NCBI GenBank assembly: GCA_964568925.1
Contig: CAZMSJ010000001.1
Location: forward strand, 1,115-65,114
Reading direction: 5' to 3'
Length of the DNA stretch: 64,000 nt
DNA from: an uncultured Gammaproteobacteria bacterium
GTDB taxonomy: Bacteria; Patescibacteriota; Microgenomatia; UBA8517
In this document: positions 26,168 through 45,359 of the stretch, piece by piece
Numbering within the stretch: the stretch's first letter is position 1
Layout: every line of letters begins with the position of its first letter
The notes under the pieces: generated by a model
Told to the model about the DNA's origin: nothing
The model's database searches: none
The model's input: the letters and a program-made list of their open reading frames with translations, nothing else
Made by a program: the position numbers and the translations under genes

Positions 26168-26242
26168 CCTCTTTTTTGACCCTCCGCATGTCGGGGGGTT
26201 CATTTTGTGCTAAAATACCCTCACTATAGTACGTTTAAGACT

Positions 26243-27658
26243 ATGAATAAAAAATTCTATATAACCACAACCTTGCCCTATGTAAATGCAGACCCACACA
26301 TTGGTTTTGCTTTAGAGATTGTGCAAGCAGATGTCATTGCCAGAATGAAAGCAATTGAAGGGTTTGATGTCTTTTTTAATTTTGGAACAGATGAACATGG
26401 ATTGAAAATCTTCAGAAAAGCTCAAGAGCAACACATTGACCCAAAAGAGTACTGTGATGCTTTTGCCGCTAAATTTGATGAACTTAAAAAGGCACTAAAC
26501 CTCTCATACAACAACTTCATTCGTACAACAGATCCACATCACCTGTCAGCTGCTCAAGAGTTTTGGCGAAGATCAAAAGAAAATGGAGACATCTATAAAA
26601 AGGACTATGAAGTAAAATACTGTGTTGGTTGTGAACTTGAAAAAACTGACTCAGAACTTGTAGAGAATAGATGTCCGTTGCACCCAAATCAAGAAATTGA
26701 AATTATTCATGAAGAAAACTACTTCTTCCGCTTCTCAAAGTACCAAGAACCGCTTCTTGCCTTCTATAAAGAACACCCTGATTTTGTAATACCAGCTTTC
26801 AGACAAGCAGAGATTACAAAGTTTGTATCAGAAGGACTTTCTGACTTTAGTATCTCTCGACTGAAATCAAAAATGCCGTGGGGAGTGGATGTACCAGATG
26901 ACAGTGAACATGTTATGTATGTGTGGTTTGATGCATTAATTAACTACATCTCTGCCCTTGGTTGGCCAGAGAACACAGAGAAGTTTGAAAACTTTTGGCC
27001 AGGGCTACAAGTTGCAGGGAAAGACAACTTGAGACAACAAACAGCTATCTGGCAAGCAATGCTCATGTCAGCAGGTCTCCCAAACTCAAAGCAGGTGTTT
27101 ATTCATGGATTCATCACCGCAAATGGACAGAAGATGAGTAAAAGTTTAGGGAATGTGGTAAACCCCTATGAAATCGTCGAAAAATACGGAACTGATACCA
27201 CTCGATACTATTTATTAGCCAAAGTAAGTCCAGTTGAAGATGGTGACTTTACAAAAGAAAAGTTTGAGGAAGCATATACAGCAGATCTAGCCAATGGTCT
27301 CGGGAACTTAACCAGTCGTGTAGCCAAAATGGTACAAAATGCAGGACTATCTGTGCCCTTGGTTACTCTTTCCACAAGCCCAGAGGTTATTAAACACGTA
27401 GAGGCGTATGAATTTGATAAAGCCTTGTTTTCTATCTGGGAGAGGATTCGAGAGTGCGACAAACTCATTAACGAAAAAGAAGTCTGGAAACTTGCCGGGA
27501 CTGAGCAAAAAGAGGTACTTAGTAAGCTTGTTACTTCAATTCGACAGATTGCCTTTGATTTGCAAGCGTTCCTTCCTGAAACAGCTCAAAAAATTGGGGA
27601 TCAATACAATACAGAGTCAGTCCAGTCTGGTAACCCTCTTTTCCCAAGACTACAATAA
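26243..27658 (+). CDS. metG: Methionine--tRNA ligase
   Basis: HIGH motif (PHIGFALE) and KMSKS (KMSKSLGN). Class I anticodon-binding tail. Start taken at MNKKFYITT. Confidence 0.85.
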   Translation: MNKKFYITTTLPYVNADPHIGFALEIVQADVIARMKAIEGFDVFFNFGTDEHGLKIFRKAQEQHIDPKEYCDAFAAKFDELKKALNLSYNNFIRTTDPHHLSAAQEFWRRSKENGDIYKKDYEVKYCVGCELEKTDSELVENRCPLHPNQEIEIIHEENYFFRFSKYQEPLLAFYKEHPDFVIPAFRQAEITKFVSEGLSDFSISRLKSKMPWGVDVPDDSEHVMYVWFDALINYISALGWPENTEKFENFWPGLQVAGKDNLRQQTAIWQAMLMSAGLPNSKQVFIHGFITANGQKMSKSLGNVVNPYEIVEKYGTDTTRYYLLAKVSPVEDGDFTKEKFEEAYTADLANGLGNLTSRVAKMVQNAGLSVPLVTLSTSPEVIKHVEAYEFDKALFSIWERIRECDKLINEKEVWKLAGTEQKEVLSKLVTSIRQIAFDLQAFLPETAQKIGDQYNTESVQSGNPLFPRLQ

Positions 27659-40110: not shown

Positions 40111-40485
40111 CTAGCCACCCCAACTAAGAAACAAGAATATTAAACCTGAGATTCCGAATTTAACCGGATCAACAATCCCAAGTGTTGGGCTAAATGCCCC
40201 AATCATGATGTGAATCAACGCACCATGAATAATGATTCCCAAACCAACAGCCAAGGTGACAAATACAACAATGCATCCACAGCCGAGGCCCGCTTCTGTG
40301 CGTGCAATAACGGCAACAATGAGCAAAACTACGCCAACGATGAAGATGATCACACCAACGGTGGATAATCCATCATAAATGCTGGCAACTTTATTCAGAA
40401 AGTCATACACGCCAGCGGCACTGCTCATGTTTGTGCCAGTACCAGCAACTGATATAAACGCAACAATCAGGATTATCAGAGCCAT
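40111..40485 (-). CDS. Small polytopic membrane protein (124 aa), own promoter and terminator
   Basis: Three to four TM segments. GC higher than the genome background. Confidence 0.4.
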   Translation of the reverse strand: MALIILIVAFISVAGTGTNMSSAAGVYDFLNKVASIYDGLSTVGVIIFIVGVVLLIVAVIARTEAGLGCGCIVVFVTLAVGLGIIIHGALIHIMIGAFSPTLGIVDPVKFGISGLIFLFLSWGG

Positions 40486-40675: not shown

Positions 40676-41251
40676 CTAGAGCGTTGCCTGTAGCACACCC
40701 ATAAACTTTTCAATCAATACCTTTGCCTCCGACGCAAACATCATCGTTGTGTTTGCATCACAGACAAACCCGTTTCCGTCACTGTCATAAGACCATGCCC
40801 ATTCAGGCACAGGCATATTGACAATCCGTTCCGGCAATTCTACTTCGATATTGTTACTGCCCAGTCCTTTAAAAAACCGGGGTTCAATTCTTCCTGATGA
40901 AGAAACAGCTCCTGAAAGGGACGGCTGGTAGACTAGCTTACCGTCTACAATTTTCTCGTACCAAATGACCTTGGCGGGTTTGTCAAAAATCTGACCTGCG
41001 TAGCGAGGAAAAGGTTTGCGCTCTTCCATAAACAGGCCGCGAGAAACGACTATTTCTTCAGTCTCTGGCCCCCATTTGGATAAAACCGCATATAATAGTC
41101 CACTTCGCATCTGGAAATGCGGGTGTTTACCAACATCTGTAATGAAGACCAAATCGGCGGCTTTCGCAGCACGCTGAACCTCTTCATATGTCAACAACTG
41201 TTCTGCAGGACGGTTCTCTTTTATGAAATCATTCAATTGTTTGCTGTACAT
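40676..41251 (-). CDS. Island protein, member of a local paralog family (191 aa)
   Basis: The C-terminal ~105 aa aligns with the 157-aa protein at 43878..44351 (LPERIVNMPVPEWAWSYDSDGNGFVCDANTTMMFASEAKVLIEKF vs FPEPVVTLPIPRWVKVWVHGDYGACDAGAESIQMFKSEAERLATEF). Confidence 0.45.
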   Translation of the reverse strand: MYSKQLNDFIKENRPAEQLLTYEEVQRAAKAADLVFITDVGKHPHFQMRSGLLYAVLSKWGPETEEIVVSRGLFMEERKPFPRYAGQIFDKPAKVIWYEKIVDGKLVYQPSLSGAVSSSGRIEPRFFKGLGSNNIEVELPERIVNMPVPEWAWSYDSDGNGFVCDANTTMMFASEAKVLIEKFMGVLQATL

Positions 41252-41382
41252 CTTGCTCTCCTGTTAGTTGGGTTAACTATTAATAAAATATAGATTACTT
41301 TTGATACTTAAAATATTTTTTTTAAATACGAACGGAAAATAAATATATGGTGACGGAAGTAGTTCCGCCACCATTTTTTTGA

Positions 41383-41874
41383 TTAGCTCGGAAGCCAAAA
41401 ACCTTCGCGACGAGCTTTCCGAACAAACGAAATAGCTAAGAACACATCGAGTGAGCGGCTGCTATCCACCCACTCACCTTTAAAGAGGTTCTCTAGTTTG
41501 AGGGTGAAATCGTCTCCCCCCTTATCAGATAGCGTCAACCGATATTCGGTCACGCCAATTGATTGGGGGAAACCCGCAACTTTGAAACTTACAGACTCAC
41601 CGGCCTGCAGTTTCATCGCAGGAATTACGGTGACAAGTGCTTCATCAAACGAAGCAAAGGCTTCAACTTTCCACCAATTGGTACTAATGGCTAGAAGATT
41701 CCCTTCCTCGTCCTCCAAGGCACGATACACGATAAAGTCAGGTGACGGACAGACGTTAAGTTCTTTTGCCTCCTCCAAAGCATCATTTAGCGAATTTGCT
41801 TTCAAATTCACTCGAACCTCATTGTCACCTAGTTCGATCCAGTTCCCAAAGATAACTCCAACATAGGACGGCAT
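41383..41874 (-). CDS. Island protein (163 aa), N-terminus resembles N-terminus of the 157-aa paralog
   Basis: MPSYVGVIFGNW vs MPKPAFVSLGNL, and ...KVAGFPQ...KGG vs VVAGFQVKENKGG. Weak similarity. RBS aaggagaagaatc identical to that of gene 42384..42623. Confidence 0.4.
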   Translation of the reverse strand: MPSYVGVIFGNWIELGDNEVRVNLKANSLNDALEEAKELNVCPSPDFIVYRALEDEEGNLLAISTNWWKVEAFASFDEALVTVIPAMKLQAGESVSFKVAGFPQSIGVTEYRLTLSDKGGDDFTLKLENLFKGEWVDSSRSLDVFLAISFVRKARREGFWLPS

Positions 41875-42010
41875 GATTCTTCTCCTTATTAATCAAAGCT
41901 CATGTAGCTTATAAATTGAAATGCCTCACACAAAAGATATGTTTATATCTTCTGGGTGAGGCACTTTTACTCTCACAACATTCAAACAAGATTTAAATGC
42001 TGAATTGAGT

Positions 42011-42029
42011 CCCCCACATGAAGTGGGGG
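42011..42029 (-). terminator. Conserved intra-operon hairpin (copy A)
   Basis: cccccac-atgaa-gtggggg with conserved flanks gaattgagt...tatttt.agacg shared with the copy at 44466. Confidence 0.45.
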
Positions 42030-42052
42030 CTATTTTAGACGAAGAGATCAGT

Positions 42053-42352
42053 CTACTTCCAACCTAAATCCCAGCCATACCCATTTGCTGAGTATCTAGG
42101 TTTGCGGACTGTGCCGTCCGAAAGGACAAAAATCGGAGCGTTTAAAGTAGAGTCCCACTCTACTTTCATTACTTCAAGCTCCGCAGGCTTCGTTTGCGCA
42201 CAAACCACCATTTGAACAGACTTGATTGCGGCCCAATCCTCCGCAGTTGGACCTGCGGTCGGATGCTGGTCAGCCGAAAGTGTTTCGGCAGCTTTAAAGG
42301 CAAATTCCAAAACCTTTAAAAGCGCATTATTATCAACAGTTATCTGGCCCAT
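42053..42352 (-). CDS. Island small protein (99 aa)
   Basis: ORF between the leader gene and the conserved hairpin. No family recognised. Confidence 0.4.
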   Translation of the reverse strand: MGQITVDNNALLKVLEFAFKAAETLSADQHPTAGPTAEDWAAIKSVQMVVCAQTKPAELEVMKVEWDSTLNAPIFVLSDGTVRKPRYSANGYGWDLGWK

Positions 42353-42383: not shown

Positions 42384-42623
42384 CTAATTATCCAGCCATT
42401 CAAAAAATCTCATAGCGGGGTAAATGGCAAGAATCCCCCCAAAAAGTCCGATAAAATTGAGATTCATCGGTAAAAACATTACCGCAAATCCAATACCCAA
42501 CAAAATTGGGGATCCGATCGCGATAATGGAAATAAGAAATGCACGGGCAATCTCCCCTTCAGGGTGCCCAGTAGGTACAACTGGGAAAAACTTTTTCCAA
42601 ATTTGGCGAATTTTAATACTCAT
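42384..42623 (-). CDS. Island small membrane protein (79 aa), first gene after conserved leader A
   Basis: Two TM segments. Start preceded by aaggagaagaatc and the 14-bp palindrome. Confidence 0.4.
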   Translation of the reverse strand: MSIKIRQIWKKFFPVVPTGHPEGEIARAFLISIIAIGSPILLGIGFAVMFLPMNLNFIGLFGGILAIYPAMRFFEWLDN

Positions 42624-42643
42624 GATTCTTCTCCTTGTGAGTT

Positions 42644-42657
42644 GGGCTCATGTGCCC
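42644..42657 (-). promoter_or_regulatory. Conserved leader/operator motif A: near-palindrome GGGCACATGAGCCC ~10 nt upstream of RBS
   Basis: 12/14 self-complementary. The identical 14-mer is at 44908-44921 in the same position relative to another operon start. Confidence 0.45.
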
Positions 42658-42723
42658 ATATGGATTTAGATTTCTTTTGATATTTAAAAGATTTTTAAAT
42701 ATGAAAGAAAAGTAAAAATTGTA

Positions 42724-42745
42724 GGGGAAGGTTGGCTCCTTCCCC
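42724..42745 (-). terminator. Terminator after the 305-aa gene
   Basis: ggggaagg-ttggct-ccttcccc. On the minus strand it is followed by acaattttt. Confidence 0.5.
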
Positions 42746-42758
42746 CAAAAACAATGAA

Positions 42759-43676
42759 CTACTTAATCAGGTGTTTCGAAACAATCTCGACAACCTGCTC
42801 GATTTTCAGGGTGCTATTTATACCCTGAGGGCTGCCACCAATCGTCGGCGAACCACCCCAACCGGCTTCCAATGCCGAAAGCTCAGTAAAAGCTGCCTTT
42901 AGGTCCAGGTACCCAGCTTCATACTGGCTTACCGTGAACTTTGAGTGCTTAGGCCCACCTTGGAATGAAAACTCACGATTCAAGGCAACGACGACCGGCG
43001 CTAACGAATATCCCACCATCGTCGCTGCGCGGTGAGTCGAAACGACTACCGCAATCTTTCCTTCAGTGCGATGAGTGATCGCACCACTTTCAAGAGCGGC
43101 GATCATGTCGCTGCGCTCTTTATCAACCTGTGCGCGGTATGCGCAAGGTTCCTCGCCAGTCAAGAGCCATTTTTCCATCCAGGCGACACGATCTGCAATT
43201 GCGACTTTGAAGTCTGCAACCGCTGCGGCAATCGCCGCCAGTTCGCGTGTATCTGACGCGCTGGCGTTCTTCTCAGGCCACGGGTTTTCCGTAGTAGGCA
43301 GTGGCTTCACGCCTGCCCAATGGCCACGAGCAAACTTATCGGCAGCTGCTACTCGGAGAATCCGAGCGACGGCTGCGGCAGAAAACTGCCCATTGCGGGA
43401 ACGAATTTCCAGAAGGGCCATTGCTCCAATAGAATCCAGGTCGGCACGAACTGTGACCAGGGTCGATCCCTCAACCGGCAACTCTACTGTCAGGGCTGCT
43501 TCAATTGCAGCCTGATCTGCGTTTTGTCCGCTGTGCTGGGGGTCAAGGTTCCCCAAACAGCACTGCGCAGCCAAGGCAGGAATCGTTACCTCAACACCAA
43601 AGGTGTTGGGACCAACTAGCAAGGCATTTGCCTCAGTACCAACAGGACGGGGGTCAAGGATTCCAAATTTAAACAT
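42759..43676 (-). CDS. GC-rich uncharacterised protein (305 aa), Ala/Gly-rich, no TM
   Basis: Intact ORF. GC ~55% in sampled 60-mers against ~35% in the flanks. Motifs CCLGNLDPQH, VRADLDSIGAMALL, GWGGSP. No confident family assignment. Confidence 0.5.
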   Translation of the reverse strand: MFKFGILDPRPVGTEANALLVGPNTFGVEVTIPALAAQCCLGNLDPQHSGQNADQAAIEAALTVELPVEGSTLVTVRADLDSIGAMALLEIRSRNGQFSAAAVARILRVAAADKFARGHWAGVKPLPTTENPWPEKNASASDTRELAAIAAAVADFKVAIADRVAWMEKWLLTGEEPCAYRAQVDKERSDMIAALESGAITHRTEGKIAVVVSTHRAATMVGYSLAPVVVALNREFSFQGGPKHSKFTVSQYEAGYLDLKAAFTELSALEAGWGGSPTIGGSPQGINSTLKIEQVVEIVSKHLIK

Positions 43677-43877
43677 GATTTCTCCACTGCTCTTGGGGTT
43701 GAACTTTTGTCAACACATCCTTTTGGCAGCGCGGATAGGCGCCATCGATTGCGCCCTCCAAGCTGCCATCAACAGAGAAAGAACGGTTTGGAGAGAAAAA
43801 TGTTTCTATCAATCTTGAATTTCTTCAAAACTGATTTGAAACAGGGGAAGATAATGAACCTTCCCCTAATTTGTCTA

Positions 43878-44351
43878 CTAAATGAGTTTTTTAAGCTCAT
43901 TCGTGAACTCAGTTGCGAGACGCTCGGCCTCTGACTTAAACATTTGGATAGATTCGGCACCTGCATCGCAGGCACCGTAATCCCCGTGTACCCAAACTTT
44001 CACCCAACGAGGTATCGGTAGGGTTACGACAGGTTCTGGGAATGAAACTTCCACCGCAGGGTACCCTGCCGCTTCCAAGACTCCAGGGATAATGCCTGGG
44101 GCGTTATGGTAAAACCCCAATGTAGGGGTATAACGAACGACGCCCAACTGAGCATCGATTTCTGCATTCCACGAAAAAGTAATACCCGAGTCAACCTGCC
44201 AAGTCTCACCCCAAGTGGCGGTGATAGACAACCCTCCTTTATTTTCTTTAACCTGGAACCCCGCCACTACAGCAGCAATTTTCAAATTACCAAGAGAGAC
44301 AAATGCAGGCTTCGGCATGTTGTTCGAGACGAAAGATGATAGTGTAGACAT
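43878..44351 (-). CDS. Island protein, paralog family member (157 aa)
   Basis: See 40676..41251. The true start may be MPKP at 44318. Confidence 0.45.
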   Translation of the reverse strand: MSTLSSFVSNNMPKPAFVSLGNLKIAAVVAGFQVKENKGGLSITATWGETWQVDSGITFSWNAEIDAQLGVVRYTPTLGFYHNAPGIIPGVLEAAGYPAVEVSFPEPVVTLPIPRWVKVWVHGDYGACDAGAESIQMFKSEAERLATEFTNELKKLI

Positions 44352-44465
44352 TTAAGACCCCTTATTACTTGATTAAATACAAAATTTCAAAACAGATTGT
44401 GTTTACAATATTTATATTTAATGCTCTCACAAACTTGAAACTCGCATTTCAAATTTGAATTGAGT

Positions 44466-44484
44466 CCCCCACACAAGGTGGGGG
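44466..44484 (-). terminator. Conserved intra-operon hairpin (copy B)
   Basis: cccccac-acaag-gtggggg then atttttct on the plus strand. Flanks are conserved with copy A. Confidence 0.45.
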
Positions 44485-44518
44485 ATTTTTCTAGACGGAG
44501 CCTCAGATATAAGCCCTT

Positions 44519-44887
44519 TTATTGAGAAATATCAGGAGGAAGTGGATATCCTCCGTGCTCCTCCATTTTGCTATCAGGAGACGCCGCAATAGCAGCGTCA
44601 ATTCGTTCACGCGCATTTAAGCTGAGGGAGAGCTCACGCAGGTTCATCTTCTTGATGTATCTGCGGTCAACGAGAATATCATTGCGAAGAGCATCATCTG
44701 CCCAAACAATGATACCCGGCTCATCACTTGGCGTGCTTCCTTCAAGCATTGCATACACCAAAATTAACGCTGGCCGGCGCCCACCGACGCACTTTTTCTC
44801 AAGATCAAAAACTCGAACACCGCTTTCAGAGATCTGAACCTTGTAACGGCCAACCACAACTACCTGCTCGTTTGAATTCTGTGCCAT
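44519..44887 (-). CDS. Island small protein (122 aa), first gene after conserved leader B
   Basis: ORF. Start preceded by aaggagaaaaatc and the 14-bp palindrome. Confidence 0.4.
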   Translation of the reverse strand: MAQNSNEQVVVVGRYKVQISESGVRVFDLEKKCVGGRRPALILVYAMLEGSTPSDEPGIIVWADDALRNDILVDRRYIKKMNLRELSLSLNARERIDAAIAASPDSKMEEHGGYPLPPDISQ

Positions 44888-44907
44888 GATTTTTCTCCTT
44901 AATGAGT

Positions 44908-44921
44908 GGGCTCATGTGCCC
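44908..44921 (-). promoter_or_regulatory. Conserved leader/operator motif B (GGGCACATGAGCCC)
   Basis: Identical to the 14-mer at 42644. A putative -10 TATACT lies 7 nt upstream on the minus strand. Confidence 0.45.
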
Positions 44922-44932
44922 TAAATTTAGTA

Positions 44933-44974
44933 TATCTACCTAATAAACCACTAACATGGGCTAGTAGGTAGATA
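44933..44974. repeat. 10-bp perfect inverted repeat tatctaccta/taggtagata with 22-nt spacer overlapping the module-B promoter region
   Basis: Read directly from the sequence. Confidence 0.4.
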
Positions 44975-45359
44975 CACTGGACCACATAACTGAGCTTGAA
45001 ATAGGTATTTTGAGGCTAATAATGAAGTGAAACACACATATTGTGCTTAAAAACGAGCTTAGTTAGCCTCATTTTTGAGTTCAAGAGCAGTTATGTGGCT
45101 CAAAACCTCGCTTGTAGGCGGGTTTTTTATAATGAGCTTTTTATGTGAATGAGCAGAATCCACTTACCTCTTCTCTGACTTTCGATAACTTATAATACAC
45201 CCCAAACCTATATTTGTCAAGTGGCAATGACAAATAATACTAAACCCTATCTCACAAACTACCCATTATTTGTACTCAAAAACAGGGGTGGATATCTACA
45301 TTCTTTCGCGTATGTCAAAACGTGTTGACAATTATTTTTAAACAGACTATTCTATATAA

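Follow-up and report, generated by a model that had tools for sequence, protein, structure and literature searches.

Three copies of a two-hairpin RNA module lie between the genes of a cluster in the DNA analysed here, a stretch of 64,000 nt of contig CAZMSJ010000001.1 (assembly GCA_964568925.1, positions 1,115 to 65,114, forward strand; below, the window) from an uncultured Woesebacteria-like bacterium. The module most likely punctuates a messenger RNA (mRNA) shared by these genes rather than acting as a standard terminator. We propose that it is a cis-acting intercistronic RNA on a polycistronic mRNA that serves processing and differential stabilisation, and we put the probability of this reading at about 40%. 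All genes of the cluster are on the minus strand, in the order g122, g157, g305, g79, g99, g163, g191, g124, groES and groEL. Copies of the module were found only in about four related lineages, three of which, besides that of the window, were reached through protein look-ups. The loci L005 to L008 of a Candidatus Woesebacteria metagenome-assembled genome are syntenic with the window from a TrmB-family gene to groEL and carry copies A', B' and D' together with an extra copy C. L009 carries copies B'' and D'', and L015 has a more divergent copy E upstream of a g305 homologue.

The initial annotation of this DNA had described two hairpins of the form CCCCCAC-N5-GTGGGGG at 42011-42029 and 44466-44484 with shared plus-strand flanks (5' gaattgagt, 3' tatttt.agacg). 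Both hairpins and their flanks were recovered at these positions by reading the window sequence, with a repeat finder and by blastn. The 16-mer GAATTGAGTCCCCCAC is common to the two sites and occurs exactly twice in the window, the repeat finder reported a direct repeat of 45 nt with 80% identity, and blastn aligned the L005 orthologue of copy A to copy B of the window with 76% identity over 83 nt (E = 5e-8). Because the repeat is matched by an independent blastn alignment, the similarity of the copies is real and reaches past the stem. The view of an operon-internal element that is not generic, and whose conservation exceeds the needs of a terminator, was thus borne out, and so was the common ribosome-binding site (RBS) context AATAAGG.G downstream of both copies. 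Size and number had to be revised: there are three copies and not two, and the conserved block spans about 85 nt and not about 45. With only three copies in the 64 kb of the window, all inside 2.7 kb, the element does not look like a genome-wide terminator family. The genes behind the two copies had been taken for members of a paralogous family. This is correct for g157, a paralogue of g191, while g163 is unrelated to it (hhalign probability 0.1%).

On the sense (minus) strand the conserved block folds as two adjacent hairpins, HP1 and HP2. Copy A (41969-42029) is located in the spacer from g99 to g163, copy B (44424-44485) in the spacer from g122 to g157 and copy D (43802-43867) in the spacer from g157 to g305. 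Copy D was detected with E = 6e-4 by a covariance model built from six copies (R1). A model of HP2 alone (R2) scored copies B, A and D with 62.1, 59.5 and 44.8 bits, the last corresponding to E = 1e-10, and nothing else in the 64 kb was better than E = 0.07. HP1 is a GC-rich hairpin that starts 7-33 nt past the stop codon in every copy, all genes being co-directional; its stems have 7-10 bp, its loops 4-8 nt, and its folding energies are -13.9 to -15.0 kcal/mol. HP2 starts 0-1 nt after HP1 and consists of a 12-bp AU-rich stem with an outer helix of 3-5 bp, CUC(A)/(U)GAG, across a bulge of 3-4 nt. It is flanked by the conserved sequences CUCAAUUCA and UGAGAG. HP2 and the outer helix together amount to 15-19 bp with bulges of 1-4 nt; RNase III hairpins have about two turns of mostly paired RNA, often with an internal loop. 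In copy A a third, longer hairpin (HP3) follows; smaller equivalents are present in copy B (44396-44409) and in copy C of L005.

Covariation and strand-specific G·U pairs indicate selection on a folded single strand. The adjacent hairpins folded with z-scores of -4.0 and -3.9 on the sense strand and of -2.1 and -3.3 on the antisense strand, and the three spacers gave -68 vs. -50, -50 vs. -38 and -78 vs. -66 kcal/mol for sense vs. antisense. An alignment of six distinct HP2 variants had 98.8% of its cells paired compared with 22-55% when the partners were slid. Both partners have changed in five pairs, and three types of pair are found at each of three stem positions; the covariation score was reached by 0 of 500 shuffles, and RNAalifold independently gave the same structure. 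The outer helix covaries as well, from C-G to U-A, and is extended to GUUUC/GAAAC in copy D. Twelve cells of the sense strand are G·U, which the opposite strand would turn into A·C, against a single C·A. GNRA loops (GCGA, GAGA and GAAA) occur in three variants, and the loop length is 3 or 4 nt. HP1 behaves differently in that its sequence is free while a GC hairpin is always kept, the variants being CCCCCAC, CCCCCAUA, CCCCGCAAA, GGCCGGUUU and GGGGAAGG. Between L009 and L015, whose upstream genes are homologous (55% amino acid identity), six of the 9 bp of HP1 differ in both partners, yet the length of the stem and the 7-nt loop are preserved. No other same-strand spacers in the 64 kb are as long or as densely structured as A and D, with -0.38 and -0.39 kcal/mol per nt, the median gap being 43 nt. 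A peptide-coding cause of the spacer conservation was rejected: a 47-codon open reading frame (ORF) of spacer D is frame-shifted in L015, and short ORFs running through HP1 are not conserved between copies.

The initial annotation regarded the hairpin as a partial intrinsic terminator. Because all genes are on the minus strand, the T-run noted 3' of the hairpin becomes an A-run upstream of it in the gene-sense RNA. Thus the terminator label would be wrong on strand grounds alone. HP1 does have the GC-rich stem of an intrinsic terminator, but a U-tract is absent from the sense strand of copies A and B, where ACUCAAUUCA, the sequence behind HP1, has 3 U in 10 nt. A consensus scan called no sense-strand terminator at A or B; its sole call was on the plus strand at 42011-42029. 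In copy D the sequence after HP1, GUUUCAAAUC, is borderline U-rich. The scan also yielded no consensus promoter on the sense strand of spacers A or B, and internal promoters were discarded since no -35/-10 geometry is conserved across the copies.

The noncoding spacers are the most conserved sequence of the locus. Overall, strains share 95-98% identity in spacers A and D but 77-92% in the flanking genes, where identity at third codon positions is 58-86%. Between the window and L005, identity was 98.3% for spacer A (3 differences in 178 nt), 97.5% for spacer D and 94.8% for the spacer from g305 to g79. The corresponding values for the genes were 85% for g99, 85% for g157 (third positions 71%), 84% for g305 (third positions 67%), 90% for g79 and 92% for g163; as a background, groEL, groES and TrmB had 96.8%, 98% and 97.5%. 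In the comparison with L009, g157 was 77% identical (third positions 58%, first and second positions together 86%), and identity was about 95% both in spacer B between CUCAAUUC and the RBS and in spacer D as far as GCUGCCAAA. The genes of the locus look like old, purified alleles with a nonsynonymous divergence (dN) much lower than the synonymous divergence (dS).

The window and L005 cease to be homologous at the start codon of g122 and become so again inside HP1 of copy B at 44472. The variable slot in between (window 44519-44887, L005 3742-4787) holds g122 in the window and two unrelated genes of 126 and 162 amino acids in L005, with copy C and a duplicated leader between them. Protein identity rises away from the slot, from 81% for g157 through 83% for g99, 87% for g305, 90% for g79, 93% for g163 and 99% for g191 to 100% for g124. 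The homologous upstream genes L9_78 and L15_184 are joined via the module to different genes, i.e. g157 or g305. Altogether the genes flanking the module are mutually unrelated, with g99, g122, L5_126 and L9_78/L15_184 upstream and g163, g157, L7_162 and g305 downstream. Because the homology breakpoint lies inside HP1 and the flanking genes are unrelated, the element is composite: HP1 belongs evolutionarily to the upstream gene and is constrained in structure only, and HP2, together with the flanks, forms part of the leader of the downstream gene and is constrained in sequence and structure.

Of the explanations in the initial annotation, an RNase processing site, mentioned there as an alternative, fits best. 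In the proposed mechanism the polycistronic mRNA would be cut at or next to the junction of HP1 and HP2 or within HP2. The upstream message would then end in HP1, which would protect its 3' end, and the downstream message would start with a structured 5' end, HP2 being either the recognition element or the 5' structure itself. Stability and expression of neighbouring genes would be uncoupled as in selective RNA processing and stabilisation (SRPS). Alternatively, the same RNA may act by co-transcriptional pausing or by control of read-through ahead of the terminators after g305 and g163. There are precedents: in Clostridium operons transcript ratios are set by 3' stem-loops that lie between genes and have processed sites (PMC4423207), and such stem-loops co-evolve with the upstream gene (bioRxiv 10.1101/2021.06.12.447814). 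Processing is the best-supported reading and accounts for the strand, the pair of hairpins, the structure-only constraint on HP1, the link of HP1 to the upstream gene, the lack of a U-tract and of promoters, and the density of structure.

Several observations weigh against it. With no more than about six distinct variants, which share ancestry and come from about four lineages closely related to each other, the covariation statistics have low power; because the variants are few and related the covariation counts are supportive and not statistically decisive. In view of the canonical-looking terminators after g305 and g163, the cluster may not be a single transcript. Finally, a simple stabiliser hairpin needs structure only, and the 95-98% conservation of whole spacers including loops and linkers is left unexplained. 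Since processing by itself does not explain this near-total conservation, explanations by recombination and by a DNA operator or promoter stay alive.

In the former, the spacers would be constant junctions of a cassette array, i.e. homology anchors or recombinase sites for swapping unrelated genes between strains, and they would be conserved by homogenisation and not by an RNA function. This would suit the break in homology from the start codon of g122 to HP1 of copy B, a variable segment that contains a single gene in the window but two genes and an additional module in L005, the joining of the L9_78/L15_184 homologues to g157 or g305, and spacers of 95-98% identity enclosing genes with third positions at 58-71% and dN much lower than dS. 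On the other hand, a domain scan of the cluster and the scanned neighbours found no recombinase or integrase within about 10 kb, the attC cores RYYYAAC and GTTRRRY are absent from the stem bases of all copies as read from the sequence, and covariation and strand-specific G·U pairs imply a folded single strand under selection. Exchange events are uncountable because there are only about four lineages. We consider pure recombination linkers unlikely. A combined version, in which the spacers are linkers of an integrase-independent cassette array of the candidate phyla radiation (CPR) that both punctuate the mRNA and anchor the exchange of unrelated small genes, is rather doubtful too; it would explain why junctions conserved to 95-98% occur beside old, divergent or non-homologous gene alleles. 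Equally at the level of DNA, HP1 might be a terminator of the upstream gene, and the downstream gene might have its operator or internal promoter region in the HP2 palindrome, bound e.g. by the adjacent divergent TrmB-family regulator. A TrmB-family gene indeed adjoins the cluster in three lineages (window, L005 and L021), the other spacer type also has an AT-rich palindrome after a terminator, and HP2 of copy B is made of near-palindromic TTCAAATTTGAA-like units. Yet no consensus promoter is conserved across copies, the spacing of the arms varies with loops of 3 or 4 nt, and half-sites differ within one genome by compensatory changes, which is unexpected for one dimeric protein. Furthermore, the excess of G·U over C·A (12 vs. 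1) and the GNRA loops speak for RNA, and the candidate TrmB operator TTGTCA-N8-TGACAA is unrelated to HP2, so that we regard this explanation as improbable.

Two further explanations retain a terminator. HP1, perhaps helped by HP3, which is weak and AU-rich and has a U-rich tail, might be a partial terminator or attenuator in gene direction that favours expression of upstream over downstream genes. The stability of HP1 (-14 to -15 kcal/mol) directly after stop codons would fit, as would the moderately U-rich GUUUCAAAUCAGUUUUG after HP1 of copy D and the sequences CUGUUUUG, CUUUUGUG and CUGUUUGUU that follow HP3 in copies B, A and C, respectively. We nevertheless hold attenuation to be rather unlikely: the few U residues after HP1 of A and B and the lack of a sense terminator call argue against it, canonical U-tract terminators are used elsewhere in the cluster, and the covarying HP2 and the conserved flanks are left unexplained. 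Highly improbable is a function of the plus strand, where HP1 and the T-run would terminate antisense transcription or end a small antisense RNA covering HP2. HP1 is followed on this strand by CTATTTTAGA in copy A and by ATTTTTCTAG in copy B, copy A was called as a terminator there, and a weak promoter-like site with 9 of 12 matches is located at 41916-41943 (+). However, conservation of the T-run does not extend to the orthologous or paralogous copies B', C and E, and promoter matches of 9 in 12 are at chance level with 12 found vs. 9.2 expected. In addition HP2 folds worse on the plus strand, where the G·U pairs become A·C mismatches, and covariance-model scores reach only 9-16 bits. We favor processing and stabilisation of a shared mRNA.

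The positions of the individual features are compiled in Table 1.

Table 1. Features of the module-bearing cluster with their positions in the window.
Feature	Position	Strand	Details
HP1 copy A, CCCCCAC-UUCAU-GUGGGGG	42011-42029	-	-13.9 kcal/mol; 23 nt past g99 stop; no sense U-tract
HP2 copy A, ACUC / 12-bp stem CAGCAUUUAAAU-CUU-GUUUGAAUGUUG / GAGU	41969-42010	-	-13.0 kcal/mol
HP3 copy A, long hairpin with AAAC loop, then U-rich run	41921-41964	-	-25.5 kcal/mol
Pre-RBS hairpin AGCUACAUGAGCU and shared RBS block AAGGAGAAGAAUC ahead of g163	41875-41909	-	repeat finder, folding
HP1 copy B, UCCCCCAC-CUUGU-GUGGGGGA	44465-44485	-	-14.5 kcal/mol; 33 nt past g122 stop
HP2 copy B, CUCA / CAAAUUUGAAAU-GCGA-GUUUCAAGUUUG / UGAG	44424-44464	-	-13.8 kcal/mol; GNRA loop
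HP1 copy D, AGGGGAAGG-UUCAU-UAUCUUCCCCU	43843-43867	-	-15.0 kcal/mol; 10 nt past g157 stop
HP2 copy D, outer helix GUUUC/GAAAC, 12-bp stem AUCAGUUUUGAA-GAAA-UUCAAGAUUGAU	43802-43842	-	matches of R1 and R2
Structured g305 leader in spacer D, GGCAGC..GGGCGCAAUCGAUGGCGCC..GCUGCC, then AAAAGGAUG..	43677-43770 (43677-43790 in the wider delimitation)	-	conserved; folding, L015 comparison
Second spacer type, terminator-like hairpin and U-tract, then AU-rich hairpin of 10-19 bp (19 bp at g305 to g79)	42671-42746 (42664-42746 in the wider delimitation)	-	repeat finder, scan, folding
Second spacer type, paralogous copy (g163 to g191, upstream of g191)	41304-41374 (41288-41374 in the wider delimitation)	-	repeat finder
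g122	44519-44887	-	upstream of copy B; strain-variable cassette
g157	43878-44351	-	between copies B and D; g191 paralogue, small family, fold unrecognised
g305	42759-43676	-	downstream of copy D; DHH/DHHA1-like phosphoesterase, widespread in Patescibacteria
g79	42384-42623	-	between g305 and g99
g99	42053-42352	-	upstream of copy A; no known family
g163	41383-41874	-	downstream of copy A; no known family; unrelated to g157/g191
g191	40676-41251	-	g157 paralogue
g124	40111-40485	-	between g191 and groES
Best cluster promoter, TTGACA-17-TATTAT, 11/12	45192-45220	-	consensus scan; about 300 nt upstream of g122

The strong promoter at 45220-45192 probably drives the cluster from g122 to g191. The consensus scan placed canonical terminators of hairpin and U-tract after g305, g163, g191 and g124. 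The 308-nt leader from the promoter to g122 (44885-45192, minus strand) is highly structured, with -92 kcal/mol and z = -5.3, and two long inverted repeats lie within it. A purine riboswitch in this leader (44924-45023) was discarded; the match was full-length but sub-threshold, 25 vs. 37 bits, with mismatches in the core. The opposed -35-like hexamers of the divergent TrmB and cluster promoters form TTGTCA-N8-TGACAA at 45214-45233, a candidate TrmB operator.

Searches of Pfam, PHROGs, PADLOC and NCBIfam returned no match for any of the eight proteins of the cluster. The analogy with bacteriocin, precursor-peptide and toxin-antitoxin operons drawn in the initial annotation therefore found no backing, the only assignable gene being g305 with its DHH/DHHA1 fold. 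Despite the lack of a Pfam or NCBIfam match, g305 has more than 670 relatives across Patescibacteria at about 60% identity. Its structural model had a predicted local distance difference test score (pLDDT) of 91 and resembles NrnA, pApA phosphodiesterase, PAP phosphatase and RecJ (Foldseek probability 0.99); the invariant motifs NLDPQH, RADLD and GGSP fit a DHH/DHHA1 fold. Apparently g305 represents an unannotated, widespread CPR enzyme family. The gene is the most GC-rich kilobase of the window with 52% vs. about 41%. Mobile-element genes occur beside some g305 homologues (L018 and L020; L016 10140-10472), namely TraX, a DnaG zinc ribbon, a Toprim primase, a serine recombinase and an rve_3 fragment. 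The paralogues g157 and g191 belong to a small family with 107 distant representatives among 1.84 billion proteins. For g157, a protein look-up gave only two non-self relatives and the structural model matched no fold in the PDB; blastp agreed with hhalign that g157 and g163 are not paralogues. Elsewhere in the window, a 483-amino acid ORF covers 26168-27407.

The spacers contain further repeated structures. In the g305 leader the inner stem covaries in L015 (CAUGGCAAUCGAUGGCCAUG; L015 680-772), and the spacers upstream of distant g305 homologues are unusually long with 460-690 nt. The leader may be a cis-regulatory RNA for a nucleotide phosphodiesterase. The repeat finder showed a 16-nt RBS block to be common to g163, g79 and g122. 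A pre-RBS block composed of the hairpin GGGCACAUGAGCCC and ACUCA..AAGGAGAA.AAUC AUG is repeated before g79 (42621-42657) and g122 (44885-44921), both on the minus strand. The block with GGGCACAUGAGCCC also precedes the gene for the 162-amino acid protein of L005, and the variant with AGCUACAUGAGCU precedes g163 (41872-41909). The copies of the second spacer type differ by changes that are G·U-compatible on the sense strand.

Outside the lineages named above the module was not encountered. Rfam at gathering scores reported only a tRNA in the window, and a permissive Rfam scan of the cluster gave sub-threshold, chance-level matches only. The exact hairpin pattern had 0 matches in the GTDB representative genomes and IMG/VR, and the flank pattern with a free HP2 had 0 in viral contigs. 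The single match of the flank pattern in JGI metagenomes (L014) was dismissed as chance, being inside a coding region and without a hairpin. On its minus strand the L014 contig is very AT-rich with long frames broken by in-frame TAG, which suggests from the sequence a stop-codon-recoded phage-like genome unrelated to the module. The spacers matched no phage or plasmid record by blastn, a protein-guided genome scan with g305 found nothing, and the family of the 184-amino acid upstream gene had no relatives beyond itself. No literature record of the module was found. Loci with g305 homologues of 62-67% identity contained no copy by either covariance model. Near distant g305 homologues the same layout occurs without sequence similarity, i.e. 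a GC hairpin without U-tract and then a long hairpin (L023 1459-1627 and 4884-5049; L025 2136-2329), and one of these spacers reads ACUC...GAGAG. A more distant lineage (L021 8382-10000) has a divergent TrmB gene, a small gene and a g305 homologue with a motif of its own, GGATACTCAAAACGGGTTG, in two spacers and a leader of 1 kb.

Among the known systems close to the module are the SRPS stem-loops, e.g. of the cip-cel operon of Clostridium cellulolyticum, which also directly follow the upstream gene in a co-directional operon (PMC4423207). As here, the SRPS hairpins are orthologous across related species and lie in spacers with more structure than intergenic regions elsewhere; like HP1, the 3' stem-loop moves together with its upstream gene (bioRxiv 10.1101/2021.06.12.447814). 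The present module differs by a second, sequence-conserved and covarying hairpin with conserved flanks. It is also repeated between unrelated genes, and its whole spacers are more conserved than the genes. With intrinsic terminators HP1 shares a GC-rich stem of 7-10 bp, a loop of 4-8 nt and a position shortly after the stop codon, but the T-run of the module is on the opposite strand and not conserved among copies, and a sense U-tract is missing at A and B. The RNase III sites of phages T7 and T3 of the R1.1 type are similar irregular hairpins with internal loops between polycistronic genes, and cleavage leaves a protective 3' hairpin. In contrast, the HP2 duplex has only 15-19 bp, and there is no phage context, as judged by the lack of a PHROG match.

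Repetitive extragenic palindromic (REP) sequences and bacterial interspersed mosaic elements (BIME) are imperfect intercistronic palindromes, and REPs stabilise upstream mRNA as in malE-malF. Repeat families of this kind and miniature inverted-repeat transposable elements (MITE) have many dispersed copies per genome; the 64 kb covered here contain three copies of the module, all between 41969 and 44485, and these have diverged with compensatory changes instead of being near-identical. Terminal inverted repeats or target duplications as in MITEs do not flank the module, and its 5' boundary varies between copies. The put RNAs of phage HK022 are two stem-loops 0-1 nt apart that act in cis on the nascent transcript, are located upstream of terminators and have paralogues with compensatory changes. 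They have no sequence similarity to the module, in which HP1 is free to vary and three copies occur in one operon. Integron attC sites are set apart by their core motifs, which the stem bases of the module lack; an IntI-type tyrosine recombinase was not found in the cluster or the scanned neighbours.

Taken together, an intercistronic stem-loop is a known category. What is new is the pair of a variable and a conserved, covarying hairpin that is repeated between unrelated genes, a conservation above that of the genes, and the coincidence with breakpoints of gene content. To our knowledge, almost nothing is known about the organisation of transcription and the decay of mRNA in CPR/Patescibacteria, and the locus is a compact and well-defined test case for both. 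If the module serves processing and stability, it would be a portable punctuation mark that a lineage with tiny genomes uses in its polycistronic mRNAs; should it take part in the exchange of cassettes, it would represent a new route to variation in gene content.

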